DNA from: Alphaproteobacteria bacterium
Lineage (GTDB): Bacteria; Pseudomonadota; Alphaproteobacteria; RF32; CAG-239
Direction of reading: 5' to 3'
Length of the DNA: 64,000 bases
Assembly: GCA_045639065.1 (NCBI GenBank)
Contig: JAZUCK010000001.1
Span: 11,331 to 75,330 of the forward strand
A model generated the notes under the pieces. It saw nothing but the letters and a program-made list of their open reading frames with translations. It searched no databases and was not told the DNA's origin. A program made the position numbers and the translations under genes. This document shows, piece after piece, positions 9,794 through 52,005 of the stretch. The stretch's first letter is position 1. Each line of letters begins with the position of its first letter.

Positions 9794-10947
9794 TATTCCG
9801 CCATTGCAAATTGTTTGTTATCTGTAACTTCGATTACTATACATGACTTATTTGTTTTTTTCAAACTATAACATGTTTTATCCGCCTCATTTTTTGCAAA
9901 GCCTTTTAATTGAGAACGATAAACAACAGCTCCACCATTAGGTGAGACTTCAACATTTATTTGGCTTTTATTGGCATAAGGGAGGTGAATATCGTTTTGT
10001 ATCATTAACGCATAGTTGCGTGCTTTTATGTAGTTTGAAAAGGAACCGATTTGAATTCCCCAGTTATTGTTATTGTCAGCAGCATCTGTTTCGGGAATAT
10101 CCAATTTTGCGTATAGTCGGGTTGATTTTTTGCCGGTAAGCTTTGTTAGGCCGTTTTTCATCAAATCGGCAACTTTATAGTCTCGTTTTTTACCTGTTTG
10201 ATGTCCCATAGTAACGGCAATTACTCTTTTATCATCCCATTGAGCTGAAGTTACGATATTGTATCCTGCTCGTCTGGTATAACCGGTTTTCATACCGTCA
10301 GCACCTTTGAAATGTTTTAGTAAATGATTGTGATTTTTGAATGTAAGATCTTTGAATTTGAATGTCTTAGCTGAAAACATTTCATAATATTCGGGGTAGT
10401 GATGATAAATTGCGCTGGCTAAGATTGCCATATCACGAGCGGTTGTTTTTTGGTCTTTGTGATGTAAGCCGTTGGGATTTTTAAATATTGTGTTTTTCAT
10501 TCCCAATTCTTTGGCTGTTTTATTCATTGTTTCAACAAAGTTTTTTACATTACCGCCAATTCCTTCAGCCAAAACTATAGCGCAATCATTTGCTGATTTT
10601 ACAATCAAAGCCATTACGGCATCTTTAACCGATATTTTGTTTCCTTTGAGAAGTCCTAAGTATGAAGGTTCTTGGCTGGCGGCTTTGTATGAGGCTGTTA
10701 ATTCAGTGTTTAATGTGATGTCGCCGTTTTCTAAGGCATTGAAGGTAAGATATAAAGTCATAAGTTTGGTTAGCGATGCCGGATAGCGCTGTTCGTCAGC
10801 ATTGTGCGAGTATAAAACGTCACCGTTTATGGCATCGATAACAATTGATGATGTGGTTCTTGCACATTGGGCTTCGGAAATGTTAAACAAACAGGTAAAG
10901 CATAAAAGTAAACACAAGAAAAAACCTGCTTTATGTAATAATTTCAT
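9793..10947 (-). CDS. D-alanyl-D-alanine carboxypeptidase (peptidase S11) with C-terminal SPOR-like domain
   Basis: PASLTK (SxxK), KSAND (SxN), KTG motifs; C-terminal WGIQIGSF. Confidence 0.9.
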   Translation of the reverse strand: MKLLHKAGFFLCLLLCFTCLFNISEAQCARTTSSIVIDAINGDVLYSHNADEQRYPASLTKLMTLYLTFNALENGDITLNTELTASYKAASQEPSYLGLLKGNKISVKDAVMALIVKSANDCAIVLAEGIGGNVKNFVETMNKTAKELGMKNTIFKNPNGLHHKDQKTTARDMAILASAIYHHYPEYYEMFSAKTFKFKDLTFKNHNHLLKHFKGADGMKTGYTRRAGYNIVTSAQWDDKRVIAVTMGHQTGKKRDYKVADLMKNGLTKLTGKKSTRLYAKLDIPETDAADNNNNWGIQIGSFSNYIKARNYALMIQNDIHLPYANKSQINVEVSPNGGAVVYRSQLKGFAKNEADKTCYSLKKTNKSCIVIEVTDNKQFAMAE

Positions 10948-16096: not shown

Positions 16097-16170
16097 TGCT
16101 TCGTCGTCTAATGGTAGGACAGCGGATTCTGACTCCGTCAATCTTGGTTCGAGTCCAGGCGAAGCAGCCA
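16097..16170 (+). tRNA. tRNA-Gln(CTG)
   Basis: TGCTTCG/CGAAGCA acceptor stem, anticodon loop TT-CTG-AC, GTTCGA T-loop, encoded CCA. Confidence 0.95.
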
Positions 16171-16455
16171 ACAAAAAAATCCACCTGAAAAGGTGGATTT
16201 TTTTATTGGCTTAAAGGACAAGAACCAAGATTTTGGTTCGGAGCGGATAGTTGGCGAAAACGAGTGTTGAGCTTAGCAAAACGCTTGGCGAAATACGAAG
16301 TTTGAGGCTTACGACGCGAGGAGGACCCGCTTTAGCGGGAGTACCCAGTCCAGGCGAAGCAGCCAATAAAAAAATCCACCTGAAATGGTGGATTTTTTTA
16401 TTGGCTTAAAGGACGAGAACCAAGATTTTGGTTCGGAGCGGATAGTTGGCGAAAA
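16152..16455 (+). repeat. Two ~109-bp direct repeats (16152-16260, 16347-16455) starting in the tRNA-Gln 3' end and including its terminator
   Basis: AGTCCAGGCGAAGCAGCCAA...ATCCACCTGAAA.GGTGGATTTTT...GATAGTTGGCGAAAA repeated with a 195-bp period. Confidence 0.92.
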
Positions 16456-16605
16456 CTAATACATTTTATATCTTCTTTCTAAAACCCTAGACATCTGTTT
16501 TATGTGGAGATAAATTAACGCTTGATTGCTTAGTGTAAATATTGTATGAGTCACACAAAATATAGTTTATAAATATGAAATATGTAATAATGAGGGATTT
16601 TTCTC

Positions 16606-17250
16606 ATGTCTGATGTGATAAGTAAGAAAATAGAAAAAGAATTGTATGAATATGTAAATTTTAAGAAAGAGTTTCAATTTACATTTAAGGACATAATTAA
16701 TAAGGGAAATATTCAATATTGTGATGGTTTTCCTATTTATGATGAAGAAGGTAATTATATCCCTGAGTGTAATAAGTGGATAAATGTTGGGTATAAAATT
16801 AAAAATTCTTTATCCAAGTTACTTTCTAACCTATATCCCTATGAATTTGTTTTTAGAAATTTTCACTTAAAGAGTATTGAAGCATTTTTCCAATGTATTA
16901 AATTCAAAGATCCCATTATTCAGCAGATGATTTTTAATTACTACGGAACAGATGCCTATCATATTCAAGCAACCAGTTGTTACGACTGGAAAGAAACAGG
17001 ATATATTTATTGGCAAGGCCACCCCATAAAACGAGATAGTTCAGAATATGATATGTTGGTGGACGAATTATATATTTCAGCAGCACAAAATCCTTTGTAT
17101 AGGCAAGCGTTGAAAAGTGTAACAAATCCAATCATTCATTCTATCGGAAAAACATTAAAAAGTGAAACTGTATTCACTCGTTATGAGTTTGAAAGAGAAT
17201 TAAATAGTCTTTCTGCGTTTTTGAAACACATAGATCAAGGCCACCAATAA
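16606..17250 (+). CDS. NADAR-superfamily protein of the phage T4 gp30.3 type
   Basis: LSNLYPYEF, SIEAFFQCIK, IYWQGHPIKR, AAQNPLYRQAL, IHSIGK, ETVFTRYEF match the recalled T4 30.3 motif order (LSNF, LEGFLQGCK, LFWLG, QN..FRDAL, KHS, DTILTEAEF). Confidence 0.7.
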   Translation: MSDVISKKIEKELYEYVNFKKEFQFTFKDIINKGNIQYCDGFPIYDEEGNYIPECNKWINVGYKIKNSLSKLLSNLYPYEFVFRNFHLKSIEAFFQCIKFKDPIIQQMIFNYYGTDAYHIQATSCYDWKETGYIYWQGHPIKRDSSEYDMLVDELYISAAQNPLYRQALKSVTNPIIHSIGKTLKSETVFTRYEFERELNSLSAFLKHIDQGHQ

Positions 17251-44503: not shown

Positions 44504-46081
44504 TTATTCTTTGATTTTGGAAAATTTGACTTTCGGAAAATCTTCCTGTGCTTTGTTTAAGTGCCAAGCATTACGAGCTAAGAATACTAAAGCTCCGTCG
44601 TTGTCTTCGGCAATATTTAAGCGATTGGCATCAATGAATTTGTTTAACTCATTTTTATCATCAGCCGAAATCCAACGGGCTGTATAATATTGAGTTTGTT
44701 CAAACATTACCGGAAGGCCGAATTCATTTTTGATACGGTCAGCCATAACCTCGAATTGCAAAACACCGACTACGCCGACAATCCATTCGGCACCAATTAC
44801 GGGTTTGAAAACACTGGCACCGCCTTCTTCGGCAATTTGCTTTAAGGCATCGCCAAGGTGTTTGGATTTCAAAGGATCGAGAGCACGAGCTGATTTTAAT
44901 AACTCTGGTGCAAATGACGGAATACCGGTAAAAGTAATTTTTTCGCCTTCGGTCAAAGTGTCGCCAATGCGAAGCTGTCCATGGTTGGGGATCCCGATGA
45001 TGTCGCCGGCATAAGCATCTTCGGCTAATTCACGTTCTTGTGCCAAAAACATTACCGGTGTCGGAACTTTTAAGGGTTTGCCGGTGCGTACTTGATGCAA
45101 GGTCATGCCACGTTTGAAGTGTCCTGAACAAATACGCATAAAAGCGATACGGTCACGGTGTTTCGGGTCCATGTTGGCTTGAATTTTAAAGACAAAGCCG
45201 CTTACTTTATTTTCATCTGGACTGACCTCACGTTCGACAGTCGGGTGCGGGCGAGGAGTGGGGGCAAATGCTAACAAGCCCTCCAATACTTCTTTTACGC
45301 CAAAGTTGTTGATGGCACTTCCGAAGAATACCGGAGTTAATGTGCCGGCCAAGTAGGCGTCTAAATCAAACTTGGGACAAAGCTCGCTAATCATCATAAT
45401 GTCTTCACGAAGCTTGGCAACTTGGTGAGCCGGTAATAATTCGTCTAATTTAGAATCATCAAGTCCGGAAACCGTTTCGATAACAGTATTGATTGTCGAT
45501 TTGTCGCCGGTTTTGTTCATCAAAATCATGCGATTGTTTAAAATATCATAACAACCTTTGAAATCTTTACCGGAGCCGACCGGCCAACTTGCCGGTGTAA
45601 CATCTAAGGCTAAGGTTTGTTCAATCTCATCTAAAAGGGCAAATGGATCTTGGCCTTCACGGTCTAATTTATTGATGAAGGTGATAATCGGTACATCACG
45701 CAGACGGCAAACTTCGAACAATTTTTTTGTTTGAGTTTCGATACCTTTTGCCGAATCGAGTACCATGATGGCAGAGTCAACGGCGGTTAGTACACGATAG
45801 GTGTCTTCGGAAAAGTCTTCGTGTCCGGGGGTGTCCAAAAGATTGAAGGTTACGTTGCTATATTCAAATGTCATTACAGATGAGGCAACGGAAATACCAC
45901 GTTCTTGTTCTACTTTCATCCAATCGGAGTGAGCACGACGATTTTCGCCACGAGCCTTTACCGCGCCGGCTTGTTGAATCGCACCTCCAAACAATAACAA
46001 TTTTTCGGTTAATGTTGTTTTACCTGCGTCAGGGTGTGATATAATTGCAAAAGTTTTGCGTTGGTTAGTTGTATTAGTCAT
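44504..46081 (-). CDS. prfC: Peptide chain release factor 3
   Basis: RKTFAIISHPDAGKTTLTEKLLL, DTPGHEDFSEDTYR, IQANMDPKHRDR. Confidence 0.97.
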   Translation of the reverse strand: MTNTTNQRKTFAIISHPDAGKTTLTEKLLLFGGAIQQAGAVKARGENRRAHSDWMKVEQERGISVASSVMTFEYSNVTFNLLDTPGHEDFSEDTYRVLTAVDSAIMVLDSAKGIETQTKKLFEVCRLRDVPIITFINKLDREGQDPFALLDEIEQTLALDVTPASWPVGSGKDFKGCYDILNNRMILMNKTGDKSTINTVIETVSGLDDSKLDELLPAHQVAKLREDIMMISELCPKFDLDAYLAGTLTPVFFGSAINNFGVKEVLEGLLAFAPTPRPHPTVEREVSPDENKVSGFVFKIQANMDPKHRDRIAFMRICSGHFKRGMTLHQVRTGKPLKVPTPVMFLAQERELAEDAYAGDIIGIPNHGQLRIGDTLTEGEKITFTGIPSFAPELLKSARALDPLKSKHLGDALKQIAEEGGASVFKPVIGAEWIVGVVGVLQFEVMADRIKNEFGLPVMFEQTQYYTARWISADDKNELNKFIDANRLNIAEDNDGALVFLARNAWHLNKAQEDFPKVKFSKIKE

Positions 46082-46201
46082 TTTTTTCTCTTATTTTATC
46101 TAAAGTTAGCATACAAGTATCAATTAAAGTTTTATTAGTCAAGTAAAACAAAACCCCTCGCTTTTTTATTTAAACGAGGAGTTTTGAATAAGACTATAGC
46201 A

Positions 46202-47014
46202 CTAATGGTTTATAGCGTTGCCTTCAGCATCATATTTTACGACTTTTGCATTGTCATGCAAGCCTTTGATTATGTCTGCCATAGTTTTTTGAGCCAACAT
46301 TCCTTTGAGTTGGTTTTCAATCTTGTCCAAAGGTTGCGGTTTAGCTTCACGAACGTCTTCGACCAAAATTACATGATAACCGAACTGAGTTTTTACCGGA
46401 GCTTTGGTATATTCGCCTTTTTTCAATTTAAATGCGGCATCACCAAATTCAGGAACCATCATTTCTTTAGTAAAGTAACCCAAGTCAGCAGGTTCTTTGG
46501 AGTATTCTTTGGCCAATTTTTCGAAGTCGCCGTTTTTTTGGAATTTTGCAATAACTTCCTTGGCGGTAGCTTCGTCTTTGACCAAAATGTGCTTGGCCTT
46601 AACTTCTTTCTCGCCATTGAAGGTATTTTTGTAATCTTGATAAAGTTTTTTGACAGCTTCGTCATTAACTCTTTTTCTGACTTCTTTTTCTAAGTATACC
46701 TTGCGAGCTAATTCTTCTTTTAGTGCTTTTAGTTGTTTTTTGTAATCGGCATCATTTTCGATACCTGATTTGGCCGCTTCTTGATAAACAATTTCGCCGT
46801 CAACGAAAATGTCTAAGGTTTTGCCATAGAAATCATCAAAAGAAGTTTTTTCTTTGACTACCGGATTTGCCTCGTAGGCAACTTTAATATCGGCAACCTT
46901 AATTTCTTTACCGTTTACAACAGCGGCAACTCCGTTTTTGCCGGCAGCAAAAGAATTTGCTGAAGCAAACAAAGCAGTTGACATCATTAACATTGCTAAA
47001 AGTTTTTTATTCAT
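46202..47014 (-). CDS. Parvulin-type peptidyl-prolyl isomerase (PrsA/PpiC-like)
   Basis: Signal peptide, AKHILV, DLGYF, MVPEF, PVKTQFGYHVI; start ATG 47014. Confidence 0.92.
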   Translation of the reverse strand: MNKKLLAMLMMSTALFASANSFAAGKNGVAAVVNGKEIKVADIKVAYEANPVVKEKTSFDDFYGKTLDIFVDGEIVYQEAAKSGIENDADYKKQLKALKEELARKVYLEKEVRKRVNDEAVKKLYQDYKNTFNGEKEVKAKHILVKDEATAKEVIAKFQKNGDFEKLAKEYSKEPADLGYFTKEMMVPEFGDAAFKLKKGEYTKAPVKTQFGYHVILVEDVREAKPQPLDKIENQLKGMLAQKTMADIIKGLHDNAKVVKYDAEGNAINH

Positions 47015-47201
47015 TATCACATCTCCAAAACAAATGTTACACTTTATCAATTTATATAATAAATTTTTGCAAAAAATCCAAGATATTTTTTTTGGTAAGG
47101 TTTATAACTTGGTTGGGCTCTTGACTCTGATGATTTAAAACACTAAATATGATGTGTTAAACTATTGATTATAAAATTTATAACCCAAGGATAATTGAAA
47201 T

Positions 47202-49928
47202 ATGATAGGTAGTATTGCACGCAAGATTTTCGGTTCGGCTAATGACAGATATGTAAAAAAACAATATAAAACAGTTGAAAAAATTAATGCTTTAGAGCCT
47301 GAATATAGCGCATTGTCTGATGAACAGCTTTTGGCTAAAACAGCTGAATTTAAACAGCGTTTGGCAAATGGTGAAACCGAAGATGATATTTTGGTAGAAG
47401 CTTTTGCTACAGTTCGTGAGGCGGCAAAACGAACCTTAGGACAGCGTCACTATGATGTTCAACTTATCGGTGGTATTGTGTTACACCATGGTCAAATTGC
47501 CGAAATGAAAACCGGTGAAGGTAAAACTCTTGTTGCAACTTTGGCTGCTTATCTTAATGCTTTGTCCGGCAAGGGCGTTCATATTGTTACAGTAAATGAT
47601 TATTTGGCAAAACGTGATGCTGAGTGGATGGGACAAGTTTATCGTTTTTTGGGTTTGACGGTTGATTATATTGTCCATGAGAAAAATGACGAGCAAAGAC
47701 GTGAGGCTTATAATGCCGATATTTTGTATGGTACAAATAATGAACTAGGTTTTGACTATTTGCGTGATAATATGAAGTTTCGTCGCTCGGATATGGTGCA
47801 ACGTCCGTTTAACTATGCTATTGTGGATGAAGTTGACTCTATTTTGATTGATGAGGCCAGAACTCCGCTTATTATTTCAGGTGCAGCTGAAGACAGTTCG
47901 GAAAAATATATTTTGGTTAATCAAATTATTCCCAAGCTTTTTGATGTTGACTATGAAAAAGATGAAAAAGCTCGTCAAGTTACCTTAACCGAAAAAGGTA
48001 TGATTCATGTTGAAGAGTTATTGAAAAAGGTCGGCCTTATTGCTGAGGGTGGACTGTACGATTTGGCTAATGTAAGCCTTGTTCATCACGTTAATCAGGC
48101 CTTGCGTGCGCACAAAATGCATACCAAAGACGTAGATTATATTGTAAAAGACGGTAAAGTGATGATTATTGATGAATTTACCGGTCGTATGATGGAAGGA
48201 CGTCGTTATTCTGATGGTCTTCATCAGGCAATTGAGGCAAAAGAAGGGGTGAGAATCCAATCAGAAAACCAAACTTTGGCTTCTATTACTTTCCAAAATT
48301 ATTTTCGTATTTATCCGAAACTTTCGGGTATGACCGGTACGGCAATGACCGAAGAAGCCGAATTTAATGATATTTACAATTTAAGTTGTGTCGAAATTCC
48401 GACAAATCGTCCGGTTTTGCGTGAAGATTTACACGATGAAATTTATCGTACCGAACGCGAAAAATTTGATGCTATTATCAAGACAATTCAAGAATGTCAT
48501 GATAAAGGTCAGCCGGTTTTGGTCGGTACGGCATCAATCGAAAAATCAGAATTGGTTGCCGATTTGTTGGCTAAAAATACCAAATTGAAATTTGAGGTTT
48601 TGAATGCTCGTCATCATGAACGCGAAGCTTATATCGTGGCTCAAGCCGGTACTTCGGGTGCTATTACCATTGCTACCAATATGGCCGGTCGCGGTACCGA
48701 TATTCAGCTTGGCGGTAACGTCGAAATGCGCCTGAAAGAAGCCTTAAAAGGAGACGAAACCGAGGAACAAATCGAGGCTTTAAGACAAAAAATTAAACAA
48801 GAAGTTGAAGCTGATAAGCAAAAGGTAAAAGAAGCCGGCGGACTTTATATCTTGGGTACAGAGCGCCACGAAAGCCGTCGTATTGATAACCAATTGCGTG
48901 GTCGTTCCGGTCGTCAGGGGGATCCAGGAACGTCTAAGTTCTTCTTATCATTAGAAGATGATTTGATGCGTATTTTCGGCTCTGAACGTATGAGCATTAT
49001 GCTTCAACGTTTAGGCTTGCCCGAGGGTGAGGCTTTGGTACACCCTTGGATTAGCAAGGCTTTGGAGAAAGCTCAGCAAAAGGTTGAAGAACGTAACTTT
49101 GATATTCGTAAAAATTTGCTCAAATATGATAACGTTATGAATGAACAACGCAAGGTTATTTACGAGCAACGTAAAGAGCTTATGGAGGCAGAAGACGTTT
49201 CGGATACTATTTATGATATGTGTCATGATCAAATTCGCAATGTTGTATATAATGACGTTGTTTACGGCTCAATGCCTAAAGATTGGAATGTTGAAAATAT
49301 GCAACAGGATTTGGCGCGTCTTACAGGTATTTTGTTGCCTTTGGAAGAATGGCGCAATGAAGCTGATATGGATACAGAAAAGCTTATTGATAGAATTACC
49401 GAAGTGGTTGATGAGCAACAAAATAGTAAAAATGCTAATGTGCCTGCCGATATTGTTCGCGCAGTTGAAAAGTCAGTCCTTTTACAAGAACTTGATTCTT
49501 TGTGGAAGGATCATATAGCAACATTAGATTATATGCGTCATACCATTGTTTTGCGTGCTTATGGTCAAAAAGATCCTCTAAACGAATATAAAAAAGAAGC
49601 ATTTAATATGTTCTCGGATATGCTCAATCAGTTAGGTGAGAAGGTTGCGTTTATCATTATGCGCACGGTAATTCAGCAAAATTCGGCTGAGGATATGGAA
49701 ACTCGTAATTCTAAACAAGGAAAAATGCAAGCTGTTCATGAGAGCCCGGTTAATCTTCTTTCGGGAAAACAGGAGAATCACGTTCAAGCCGAAAAACAAG
49801 CTCCGTTTGCTTATGAAAAAACAGAGTTTGATGCAAAAGATCCTACTACATGGGGAAAGGTTGCTCGTAATGATCTTTGTCCATGCGGAAGTGGTAAGAA
49901 GTATAAGCATTGTCACGGTCAAATATAA
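47202..49928 (+). CDS. secA: Preprotein translocase subunit SecA
   Basis: [40 protein letters not shown]-terminal [13 protein letters not shown]. Confidence 0.98.
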
Positions 49929-49936
49929 AGTAAAAG

Positions 49937-50345
49937 CTTGTATAACGGGCTACTAATACAGAATTTGGAAAATATTTTGTTCGGTCACGTACTATTTTGT
50001 ACGCTCACTCGCAAAATTTTTCAATTCTTATTATTAGCCTCGTTCTCCAACCTTTTTTTTACTCTTATTACGGCTCATCTAAAGCAATTTTACGGGGAAA
50101 GTTAAAAATTCACGTAGCTATTTGTACGCTAAAATTTTTAACTCCCCTAGAAATTACTCTATCTGAACCGTTCTCCAACCTTTTTTAAACTTGTATAACG
50201 GGCTACTAATACAGAATTTAGAAAATATTTTGTTCGGTCACGTACTATTTTGTACGCTCACTCACAAAATTTTTCAATTCTTATTATTAGCCTCGTTCTC
50301 CAACCTTTTTAAAACTCGTATAACGGCTCATCCAAAGCAATTTTA
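49937..50345. repeat. Tandem A-B-A'-B'(partial) array of ~125-bp imperfect palindromes, 253-bp period
   Basis: A 49937-50060, B 50061-50189, A' 50190-about 50312, partial B'; shared junction CGTTCTCCAACCTTTTT and central CACGTA...TATTTGTACGCT. Confidence 0.9.
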
Positions 50346-50354
50346 TGATATAAT

Positions 50355-50380
50355 AAAAGCCTCGTTAAAAGAGGCTTTTT
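50355..50380. terminator. Bidirectional intrinsic terminator between the array and rnhA
   Basis: AAAAGCCTC-GTTAAAA-GAGGCTTTTT. Confidence 0.8.
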
Positions 50381-50385
50381 GTGTG

Positions 50386-50829
50386 TTATCTTCCTTTTCT
50401 TAGAGTCTTACGAGCGTTAATATCGCACCATTGTTGATTTTCGTAATGAAGCCCCTTAAATCCGGTGTGGCCTTTGATGTGATAAATGCGGTAAGCTCGA
50501 TTTGGGGAGTTATCTAGAATTTGGCGTATTTTTAATCCTATTTCACTACGTGTTCCGGCATATTCCTCACGATTTGGACGTTTAATTGTTTGTTTAACAT
50601 TTTTATTATCTGTCATGATGATAATATTTTCATCAGTTTCTTTTAATTGCTCAACAGCATATAATACGGCTTGTAGTTCGGCCATGTTACTATCATTAGC
50701 TTGTTCTAATTTTTTGAAATGTTGATGGCTTGGTTTTTGTCCGTGTTTGTGTCGCATAATGATAACAGCTAATCCTGCTTCTTTTGTGGCTTTATTATAT
50801 GATGCGTCTGTATATACTAATGTTACCAT
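50386..50829 (-). CDS. rnhA: Ribonuclease HI
   Basis: VYTDAS, SNMAEL, IMTD, HIKGHTG, NQQWCD catalytic D-E-D-D set. Confidence 0.85.
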   Translation of the reverse strand: MVTLVYTDASYNKATKEAGLAVIIMRHKHGQKPSHQHFKKLEQANDSNMAELQAVLYAVEQLKETDENIIIMTDNKNVKQTIKRPNREEYAGTRSEIGLKIRQILDNSPNRAYRIYHIKGHTGFKGLHYENQQWCDINARKTLRKGR

Positions 50830-50997
50830 TTTATTTATTCCTTAATTTATTAGATAATGTGTAATATATCACATGTATTCTGTCTAATCAAGCTTTTTGT
50901 CTAATTTTATTTTGGTAATGGTTACACAATTTTAATAATTTCGGTATTATATACTAATAATAATGAATCTATGTGATTTGAATTAAAGGATTGAAAA

Positions 50998-52005
50998 ATG
51001 GCATTTCAAACAAAAAGAGTTGTTAAAAAGATTGTATCATGGGCAGGGTTGTTCTTTTTTGCGGTTGCTGCTTATATGCTCTATGACCAACTTTCAAAGT
51101 ATAGCTTTGATGATATTAAAAATGCCGTATTCTCAATTCCTGCAAAAAATTTGTGGCTGGCTTGTGGCGCTTCGTTCTTAGGATATGTTGCATTATCATC
51201 ATACGATTATTTGGCTTTGCGCTATATAGGAAGAAAATTGGCCGCGTGGAAGTGGATTTTTGCCGGAATTATCGGATTTTCGGTAAGTAATAATGCCGGA
51301 CATGCAATTGTTTCAGGTGGCACTATTCGTTATCGTTTATATACTCGTTGGAGATTTAGAGGAACCGAGATTGTAAGAATGGTTACCTTTTCCGGATTTA
51401 CTTATTTAGTAGCTTGTTTCTTCCTTATTATTGTCGGATATTTTATAACTCCGAATCATGCTTTTGGCGCCGGTTCGGTTTCCAAATTAACGACCGAAGT
51501 TACTACATTGGTATCGTTTGTCGGTTTGCTAGGATATTTTGCTTTGAGTATTTGGTATAAAAAACCGATAAAAATAAAAGATATCGAGCTTGATATGCCA
51601 AGATTTAGAATGGCTTTGGCTCAAATGATTATCGGTGCTGCAGATATTATAATGGATTCTTTTGTTTTATATTTTTCGCTTATTCCATTTGTAGAAATTC
51701 CGTTTGAGACATTTATGGGCGTGTTTATTATTGCCAAAGTTTTGGGCGTGTTTAGTCAAGTTCCCGGTGGTTTGGGTGTGTTTGAAGGTTTGTTTATGTA
51801 CATTATTCCCGGAGAGCATAACCAAGCGATGTTGTTTGGGGCGCTGTTGGCCTATCGAATTATGTATTATTTGTTGCCTTTGGTATTTTCAGCAATAATT
51901 TTATTCAGCTATGAAGGATATCTGAAATATGTTAAAAGACAACAGCTTGAAAAAATTAAGCTTTTCAGATTACAGGAAATAGCACAACAAGAAAGAGCGG
52001 GATAA
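50998..52005 (+). CDS. Lysylphosphatidylglycerol synthase TM (MprF N-terminal-like/UPF0104) membrane protein
   Basis: SYDYLALRY, GGTIRYRLY, SQVPGGLGVFE, YRIMYYLLP. Confidence 0.85.
   Translation: MAFQTKRVVKKIVSWAGLFFFAVAAYMLYDQLSKYSFDDIKNAVFSIPAKNLWLACGASFLGYVALSSYDYLALRYIGRKLAAWKWIFAGIIGFSVSNNAGHAIVSGGTIRYRLYTRWRFRGTEIVRMVTFSGFTYLVACFFLIIVGYFITPNHAFGAGSVSKLTTEVTTLVSFVGLLGYFALSIWYKKPIKIKDIELDMPRFRMALAQMIIGAADIIMDSFVLYFSLIPFVEIPFETFMGVFIIAKVLGVFSQVPGGLGVFEGLFMYIIPGEHNQAMLFGALLAYRIMYYLLPLVFSAIILFSYEGYLKYVKRQQLEKIKLFRLQEIAQQERAG

Follow-up and report, generated by a model that had tools for sequence, protein, structure and literature searches.

What kind of element fills the gap between secA and its convergent neighbour in an uncultured gut alphaproteobacterium? 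The DNA in question (the window) is a stretch of 64,000 nucleotides from contig JAZUCK010000001.1 of assembly GCA_045639065.1. Behind the secA stop codon it carries a series of long hairpins that share their junctions and loops and differ in their stems. An earlier sequence-only reading had described these hairpins and offered three options for them, namely a family similar to miniature inverted-repeat transposable elements (MITEs) or to ERIC, an array of processed non-coding RNAs, or recombination sites used as single-stranded DNA (ssDNA). The observation has been confirmed, and its interpretation is partly supported. The hairpin itself, its covariation, the dispersal and patchy presence of the units, their hybrids and relics and their position behind genes were all observed here. 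With moderate confidence, the units are read below as a low-copy extragenic palindromic family of about 125-130 nt, REPIN-, BIME- or ERIC-like in kind, which would retain the ability to fold as a single strand and serve as terminators.

The hairpin array behind secA

The secA gene (47202..49928, plus strand, 908 aa) was recognized as an open reading frame (ORF) with SecA Pfam domains, and related proteins bear the SecA name; an exact-match search for the window's own SecA protein gave no entry. Its TAA stop ends at 49928, and the A-run of the first unit opens 3 nt later. From there units A, B, A2 (the A' of the earlier reading) and B' run head-to-tail on the plus strand directly behind the stop. 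Unit A is a full hairpin at 49932-50060 with an outer helix (P0), three conserved blocks and a T-run reaching 50060. Its P0 5' strand AAAAGCTTG lies at 49932-49940, the 5' block TTGTATAACGG at 49938-49948, the apical block TCACGTACTATTTTGTACGCT at 49985-50005 and the 3' block CGTTCTCCAACCTTTTT at 50041-50057. Unit B (50061-50186) is again a full hairpin with a stem unlike that of A. It has a variant 5' block, TCTTATTACGG, at 50064-50074, a perfect 11-bp inner stem (50100-50110 / 50133-50143), the apical block at 50110-50130 and the 3' block at 50169-50185. Unit A2 (50187-50313) is a second A-type copy and a different allele of A, to which it is 94% identical over 159 nt; its 5', apical and 3' blocks lie at 50191-50201, 50238-50258 and 50294-50310. 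Unit B' (50311-50345) is truncated, having the 5' block TCGTATAACGG at 50316-50326 and the B-type left arm only, and covers positions 2-37 of the nhmmer model. The array is closed by a short terminator at 50346..50384 (A-tract, GC hairpin, T-tract; stem-loop 50355-50379), which faces both convergent genes.

The three blocks return at periods of 125 and 128 nt, and the units abut one another. As had been noticed before, A and B hold the blocks in common; all three are present in every full unit and, within the window, are confined to this array. The 3' block CGTTCTCCAACCTTTTT has three exact copies in the window, and allowing up to 3 mismatches gives 4 matches against 0.52 expected, while the apical block has 3 copies against 0.06 expected. 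Pattern search, covariance model and nhmmer all found one locus of units in the window.

The order A-B-A2-B' between the secA stop and the terminator was confirmed by the sequence and by metagenome contigs that span the junctions. Contig X2 (49896-50092) covers the junction of A and B, contig X1 (124 nt, 50110-50233) that of B and A2 with 0 mismatches, and contig X3 (332 nt, 50135-50466) runs from B via A2 and B' into the terminator. Since these contigs are independent of the assembly, the order is not an assembly artefact, and the suspicion that A' might be a misassembly is ruled out.

Anatomy of a unit and covariation of its stems

A common plan was obtained by aligning units of several genomes and folding each one. 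The closing helix P0 consists of an A-run and five bases paired with their complement and a T-run (AAAAGSTTG / CAACCTTTT; for example AAAAGGTTG / CAACCTTTT). It is followed by a conserved non-complementary internal loop, in which (G)TATA(A) on the 5' side faces (T)TCTC(C) on the 3' side. The 5' and 3' blocks are opposite sides of this one loop, together with P0. The stem of about 40 bp begins with AACGG / CCGTT and is free in sequence, while its pairing and the positions of its single bulges are fixed. At the apex lies a conserved module made of TCA, a 5-bp hairpin with a T-rich 6-nt loop, and CTC. Altogether, about 45 of about 128 positions are common between units. The hairpins of about 125 bp described earlier therefore stand, and so do all the stem pairings named for them; the units are slightly larger, P0 having been overlooked.

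Each full unit folds into one long imperfect hairpin, far better than its shuffles. The z-scores are -6.7 (A), -4.9 (B) and -6.8 (A2) on the plus strand and -6.6, -7.8 and -6.4, respectively, on the minus strand, that is from -4.9 to -7.8; the entire array gives -8.8. The fold energy of unit A is -32.4 kcal/mol. Units A and A2 score 128.5 and 122 bits with the covariance model, and unit B is found by nhmmer with an E-value of 1.2e-20.

Covariation was assessed in 12 units of about six stem types (10 units in an earlier version), aligned by MAFFT, with a slid control in which the 3' partners were moved by 1-3 columns. Standard pairs are formed in 82% of pair cells vs 38-49% in the slid controls, and 32 of the 49 pairs are altered on both sides. 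None of 500 shuffles reached the observed covariation score. The absolute pairing figures lean towards structure because the structure was derived from the same aligned sequences; the effect is nevertheless real, as the slid controls and the independent z-scores of single units indicate. Every helix takes part in the covariation. P0 changes as GGTTG/CAACC, ACTCG/CGAGT and ATGCG/CGCAT, and the apical 5-bp helix as CGTAC/GTACG, TGTAG/CTACA and CGTAG/CTACG. Relative to A2, a diverged A-like copy elsewhere carries the compensatory changes 50221G>A with 50275C>T and 50223A>G with 50273T>C. The view that selection or copying acts on a folded strand is supported by these data.

The next question is whether the folded strand is RNA or DNA. 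About 95% of the pairs are Watson-Crick. Near-pairs of the G.T and A.C kinds number 28 vs 22 in one count and 37 vs 29 in a larger one, and the best folds hold 21 G.U pairs on the plus strand vs 27 on the minus strand. An RNA made from one strand normally tolerates G.U much better than A.C. As G.T and A.C are nearly equal here, folding is constrained on both strands or at the DNA level. Asymmetry of the conserved loops and bulges nevertheless sets one strand apart. At every locus the top strand of the units is the G-rich one, and by the usual skew convention the G-rich strand is the lagging-strand template. It also coincides with the sense strand of the gene upstream, which confounds the lagging-template and transcript readings.

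The near-pure Watson-Crick pairing, with no wobble preference, could also arise if the arms were kept complementary by copying or repair, that is, by mismatch correction or fold-back synthesis on an extruded hairpin, so that a change in one arm is reverted or copied into the other. Clean double changes between close copies fit such a process. So does the comparison of window unit A with the unit of L005 (the L-numbers, L002 to L050, designate compared loci or sequences from relatives), where the inner stem is wholly replaced and the outer stem is about 85% alike. However, single mismatches have remained unrepaired (GTACA opposite CGTAC in the A unit of L034, several A.C mismatches in unit B), no conserved bulge or 4x4 loop is ever "repaired", hybrid units whose arms are not complementary have survived, and no direct evidence of such a process was obtained. 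This explanation is considered very improbable.

Related units in other genomes

Related units were found only in uncultured gut Alphaproteobacteria. The window encodes MipZ, the relatives of its SecA are entered as "MAG: Alphaproteobacteria bacterium", and its DNA occurs in metagenomes of gut or faecal origin, bovine and pig ones among them. When one genome per species was scanned with an exact pattern, five stretches came back, of which three are real; all three belong to metagenome-assembled genomes of Alphaproteobacteria, one per genome. A metagenome scan added two further real loci, both at secA. Units lie after secA in the window, L002, L006, L011, L020, L034 and L038, after prfC in L039/L040, after lepA and before a metalloenzyme-superfamily gene in L003, after a Bax1-I gene in L035 and upstream of a tRNA in L005. 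Solo A-like and B-like units with still other flanks occur in gut metagenome contigs. Other copies thus exist, and the possibility raised earlier that there might be none does not hold.

About 540 kb of clade DNA, in part redundant, was searched with covariance model R1 and nhmmer, and only the loci ascertained before came up. Two pattern scans of viral contigs gave no match, and the plasmid and phage collections gave none other than MT835812. This record, GenBank MT835812.1 (L035), is labelled "UNVERIFIED: Bacteriophage sp."; it encodes DnaB, YgjP, Bax1-I, MurJ, NifU and a type IV prepilin peptidase, and from this gene content it is apparently a piece of bacterial chromosome. A literature search for the motifs returned unrelated primer sequences only. 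The family is real but narrow and low-copy.

Variation, mosaics and relics at orthologous sites

Comparison across strains, as had been proposed, showed that the arrays at the secA site differ in the number and type of units. The window holds A1-B-A2-B'; its two A alleles correspond to those of L020 (A1) and L006 (A2). L006 and L034 have A2-C-B', both ending in a B' truncated like that of the window; L002 and L020 have A1-B*, and L011 has A1-B*-D. A single decayed B unit remains in L038, and L033 and L036 are without a unit. The secA genes of L020, L033, L034, L036 and L038 are 84.9-90.1% identical to that of the window at the DNA level. In more distant relatives the site is occupied by an ordinary terminator (L021) or by a different repeat family (L023, L039). 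Unit-sized joints were also seen in metagenome contigs, with skips of 125 and 129 and returns of 122 and 246.

The types of unit are mosaics. Type C combines the outer stem of B with another inner stem, and unit B of the window has a B-type P0 5' strand and an A-type P0 3' strand. Unit 2 of L039 is a hybrid in which a B left arm has been joined to a C right arm, and its arms no longer pair for this reason. L003 carries a nested form, an A-type unit placed in the apex of a B-type hairpin; the composite of 285 bp occurs twice in tandem. The orthologous Bax1-I loci of two related species are without a unit: L041 holds a relic of the 3' block and L050 nothing. Behind the Bax1-I stop of L041, at 10738-10770, CTTCGTTCTCTTTTATAAA resembles the 3' block and flank of the L035 unit, CCTCGTTCTCCGCATTTTATAAA; to judge by this resemblance, it may be a deletion footprint.

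Between the window and L020, unit A is identical at 120 of 121 positions, as compared with an identity of 85-86% in secA and the downstream gene and of 84% in the neighbouring unit B. Over 12 kb of this comparison, unit A and a tRNA are the best-conserved 60-nt bins. The A unit of L034 is a close A2 variant (118/121, 97.5%). Such near-identity of unit A would follow from very strong purifying selection or from recent exchange between lineages; of the two, exchange is somewhat favoured. Since solo, tandem, nested, hybrid, truncated and missing copies coexist, the units behave as a repeat family and unlike a fixed RNA gene. With copies at several unrelated loci and a patchy presence, a MITE/ERIC-like family is the best fit among the three options put forward at the outset.

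Position behind stop codons and the case for RNA

In all four gene contexts (secA, prfC, lepA and Bax1-I) the units are co-oriented with the upstream gene, and the A-run begins 0-8 nt past the stop codon or overlaps it. Each full unit has the layout A-run, hairpin, T-run. The secA and prfC cases are one chromosomal site, so that three independent sites remain. In L021, L023 and L040 the prfC-rotamase-secA segment (window 44504-49928) lies the other way round between its flanks, and at this inversion the hairpin array stayed with the flank, not with the gene. Synteny breaks at the 3' ends of secA and prfC, and in L033 the neighbour downstream of secA is of a third kind (Pro_isomerase and others).

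A consensus scan found no terminator-like site on the gene strand from the upstream gene to the next promoter in L020 and L003. As these two loci have no other candidates, the units are inferred to act as A-tract / hairpin / T-tract terminators, and thus probably double as transcription terminators. In the window the same scan calls the stem-loop at 50355-50379 as the sole terminator-like site within 49500-51200. The left half of this array-closing terminator, TAATAAAAGCCTCGTT, is 81% alike to the end of the right arm of unit A, TATTATTAGCCTCGTT, and the terminator may have evolved from a unit remnant.

The strict placement leads to a possible, though clearly less probable, explanation in which the units are a dedicated structured 3'-end RNA element. 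It would be a cis-acting terminator or stabilizer hairpin or a small RNA of the 3' untranslated region, whose maintenance would depend on transcript-level selection and whose spread on duplication and rearrangement alone, without transposition. The partner of the conserved loops would be an RNA-binding protein or else, at the stop codon, the ribosome or RNA polymerase. Position and orientation in four of four contexts, the final T-run, the missing alternative terminators of L020 and L003, the asymmetric and hence strand-specific loops, the strong covariation, the low copy number and the conservation of unit A to the level of the neighbouring tRNA all agree with this. Metatranscriptome contigs over A2 and B agree as well, but their depth is low, no higher than that of neighbouring genes, they come without strand information, and DNA carry-over is possible. 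Also against an RNA element, close relatives have no unit at the same sites and ordinary short terminators instead, and decayed, truncated, hybrid and nested copies exist. The pairs show no excess of G.U over A.C on either strand, for which selection on both transcripts of a bidirectional terminator could account. No Rfam family matches the units: at gathering score only tRNAs were returned and none of them on the array, at permissive thresholds nothing credible appeared on the array at E up to 10, and six loci holding other unit types had no match at E up to 0.01. For an array of processed non-coding RNAs, as proposed before, the same Rfam searches, low-depth metatranscriptome contigs and pair counts supplied no positive evidence.

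Several more specific roles were rejected. SRP RNA, 6S RNA, Y RNA and retron RNA, which likewise form long hairpins, were set aside for want of an Rfam match, a GNRA/AGCA apex and a nearby partner gene. A coding role is contradicted by reading frames that are not conserved between types, the apical block lying in different frames in A and L005. Readings of the blocks as parS, dif, a DnaA box or a promoter depend on partial resemblances (TCACGT, TGTATA, TTATCCA) which are inconsistent across units.

Comparison with known hairpin systems

REPINs are hairpin-forming repeats with conserved ends and a spacer kept in length and pairing; compensatory changes are common in them, and they are met with singly, in tandem clusters and as defunct remnants (PMC3116915). 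The units are similar in being extragenic hairpin repeats of about 100 nt with compensatory changes, tandem clusters and remnants. Unlike REP sequences and REPINs, they are not flanked by a GTAG-type motif and form one continuous hairpin instead of an inverted doublet of palindromes. What is conserved in them is the unpaired loops (GTATAAC / GTTCTCC) and the TCA-hairpin-CTC apex, not inverted REP palindromes. They further differ in their very few copies per genome and in their fixed orientation behind stop codons, and, in contrast to REPIN-RAYT systems, no RAYT is encoded among the 55 ORFs of the window.

In BIMEs different repeat types alternate within an array, as different unit types do here. 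ERIC (IRU) sequences of enterobacteria are imperfect palindromes, about 127 bp long, that lie in transcribed intergenic DNA and vary in presence between related strains. The units share this palindrome size, the intergenic place and the strain-variable presence. By its description ERIC is nevertheless set apart, since its copies are alike throughout whereas the units are alike only in loops and junctions, and since the host clade is another. Correia elements and similar MITEs are small intergenic palindromes able to act as terminators or RNA-processing sites. The units are likewise small palindromic intergenic repeats with a possible terminator role, but the sequence-conserved terminal inverted repeats, TA target duplication and hundreds of copies typical of Correia elements were not seen in them. 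Compared with classical MITEs, the P0 strands (AAAAGGTTG / CAACCTTTT) act as terminal inverted repeats but covary between types, and no consistent direct repeat flanks the units.

The ssoA origins are orientation-dependent hairpins of about 130-160 nt in which only the lower-stem RSB and the apical CS-6 motifs are conserved (PMC5703833, PMC6395029). The units share the long single-strand hairpin conserved only in lower-stem and apical motifs; the RSB TTTATGCCGAGAAAA and CS-6 TAGCGA sequences (PMC6395029) are absent from them. Whereas ssoA belongs to Gram-positive rolling-circle plasmids, the units are chromosomal, lie behind housekeeping genes and have no Rep gene nearby, and none was found among the window ORFs.

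The attC sites of integrons call for a closer comparison; they are 57-141 nt long and abut stop codons. What attC sites conserve is structure, not sequence: a folded single strand whose central spacer is unpaired, with extrahelical bases and a distal part that varies, and made strand-specific by its unpaired features (PMC5027507). The units parallel this with a 4x4 loop, fixed single bulges and a variable stem, but add a conserved apex and an extra outer helix.

It is therefore worth weighing whether the units are themselves recombination sites used as folded ssDNA, attC-like or similar to the attP hairpin of CTX phage, with a recombinase encoded elsewhere and the array as a set of "empty cassettes" at a rearrangement hot spot. 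The architecture of conserved paired AAC/GTT triplets, unpaired central bubble, fixed single bulges and variable distal stem agrees with attC (PMC5027507). GTATAAC fits RYYYAAC at 6 of 7 positions, the units abut stop codons, and their top strand is always G-rich, as expected of the lagging-strand template. Exchanges fall exactly at the conserved blocks, although ordinary homologous recombination could exchange at such blocks of 11-20 nt. The border of the array is a synteny and inversion breakpoint, and some strains lack the neighbouring RNase H-like ORF or have it in a highly divergent form. Yet only AAC and GTT pair, TATA facing TCTC; GTTCTCC, which fits GTTRRRY at no more than 4 of 7 positions, departs from the R' consensus and lacks complementarity to GTATAAC. 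No apical module is conserved in attC and no helix lies outside its R box. No cassette ORFs stand between the units and no integrase is encoded in the window. Integrons are reported to be absent from Alphaproteobacteria. Such sites are considered quite improbable here.

Taken against these descriptions, the family is undescribed: it departs from REP/REPIN, attC and ssoA in defining features and matches no Rfam family.

A possible mode of maintenance

Under the favoured interpretation, that of a low-copy extragenic palindromic family, the persistence of a unit would require its folding as a single strand. The conserved unpaired motifs are probably contact points for a protein, because they define one strand. 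A hairpin-binding protein acting in trans (a nuclease, transposase or other), encoded elsewhere in the genome, would contact these motifs, and the stems would drift by compensatory changes. Arrays would grow, shrink and shuffle by recombination at the conserved blocks of neighbouring or allelic units, and units lying behind stop codons would be co-opted as the terminator and 3'-end hairpin of the gene. The mechanism of mobility, the protein partner and the terminator role are the parts of this interpretation that we infer.

Several results weigh against it. Among the 55 ORFs of the window no transposase, HUH enzyme, recombinase, integrase or reverse transcriptase was detected, and the linked HUH enzyme or tyrosine recombinase that had been suggested earlier was likewise looked for in the window and not found. 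Neither a target-site duplication nor a clean pair of filled and empty sites was found among the compared loci. Copy number is low: each positive species-representative genome gave one stretch, and the 540 kb or so of clade DNA gave no extra loci, whereas tens to hundreds per genome are usual for REP, REPIN and ERIC families. The tRNA-like conservation of unit A could equally be explained by strong purifying selection on a functional RNA, and the strict placement behind stop codons favours a role at the RNA level. The consensus terminator scan does not call the units; they escape it because the stem beside the T-run is only 5 bp long before the loop.

A more far-reaching alternative, which seems unlikely, is that the units belong to an undescribed structure-specific single-strand system of Alphaproteobacteria, a class not known to carry integrons. 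A nuclease or recombinase would read the two asymmetric loops on the top strand once this has folded, and units would be inserted, deleted or exchanged by it on the lagging-strand template, precisely behind stop codons. Were this the case, a recognition logic like that of attC or IS200 would be applied to "terminator cassettes" and would drive the rearrangements at this site.

Neighbouring genes and other repeats

Convergent with secA, an RNase H-like ORF of 147 aa (PF00075, E 1.5e-15) occupies 50386..50829 on the minus strand. It is present in L006 and L034 and absent in L002 and L020. In L011 a homologue (L011 5075-5554) is 35% identical over 71 aa, while SecA of these strains is about 94% identical. 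No homologue stands beside the units of L035 (Bax1-I) or L040 (prfC). This pattern suggests an accessory gene rather than a housekeeping rnhA. A functional link to the units was rejected as a general association, the ORF being absent at L002 and L020 and at the lepA, Bax1-I and prfC loci.

A second, unrelated REP-like repeat family occurs at the same intergenic sites in species without the hairpin units, for example TGTCATTCTGAGGGACGCATGTCCCGAAGAATCTC and TGTCATGCCTTGAGCGAGGCACGAGCGAGAC. Its positions are L023 12780-12960, L039 5740-6100 and L040 1780-2060.

Elsewhere in the window, a protein with a phage GP30.3 domain (PF08010, E 1e-27; 16606-17250) is encoded just downstream of the tRNA gene at 16097-16167, and several nearby ORFs have no Pfam match. 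Judging from this gene content, the region 16097-17250 may be a small integrated element.

Significance of the family

The units add a small family of hairpin repeats in barely studied gut bacteria, in which only the unpaired motifs are conserved and every helix covaries; none of the findings has a bearing on pathogenicity. They can therefore serve as a natural data set for asking what reads a folded single strand in vivo. Placement behind stop codons suggests a rule, either for terminator replacement or for insertion aimed at the 3' ends of genes. The strain-variable arrays at a rearrangement-prone site are usable for typing uncultured strains.

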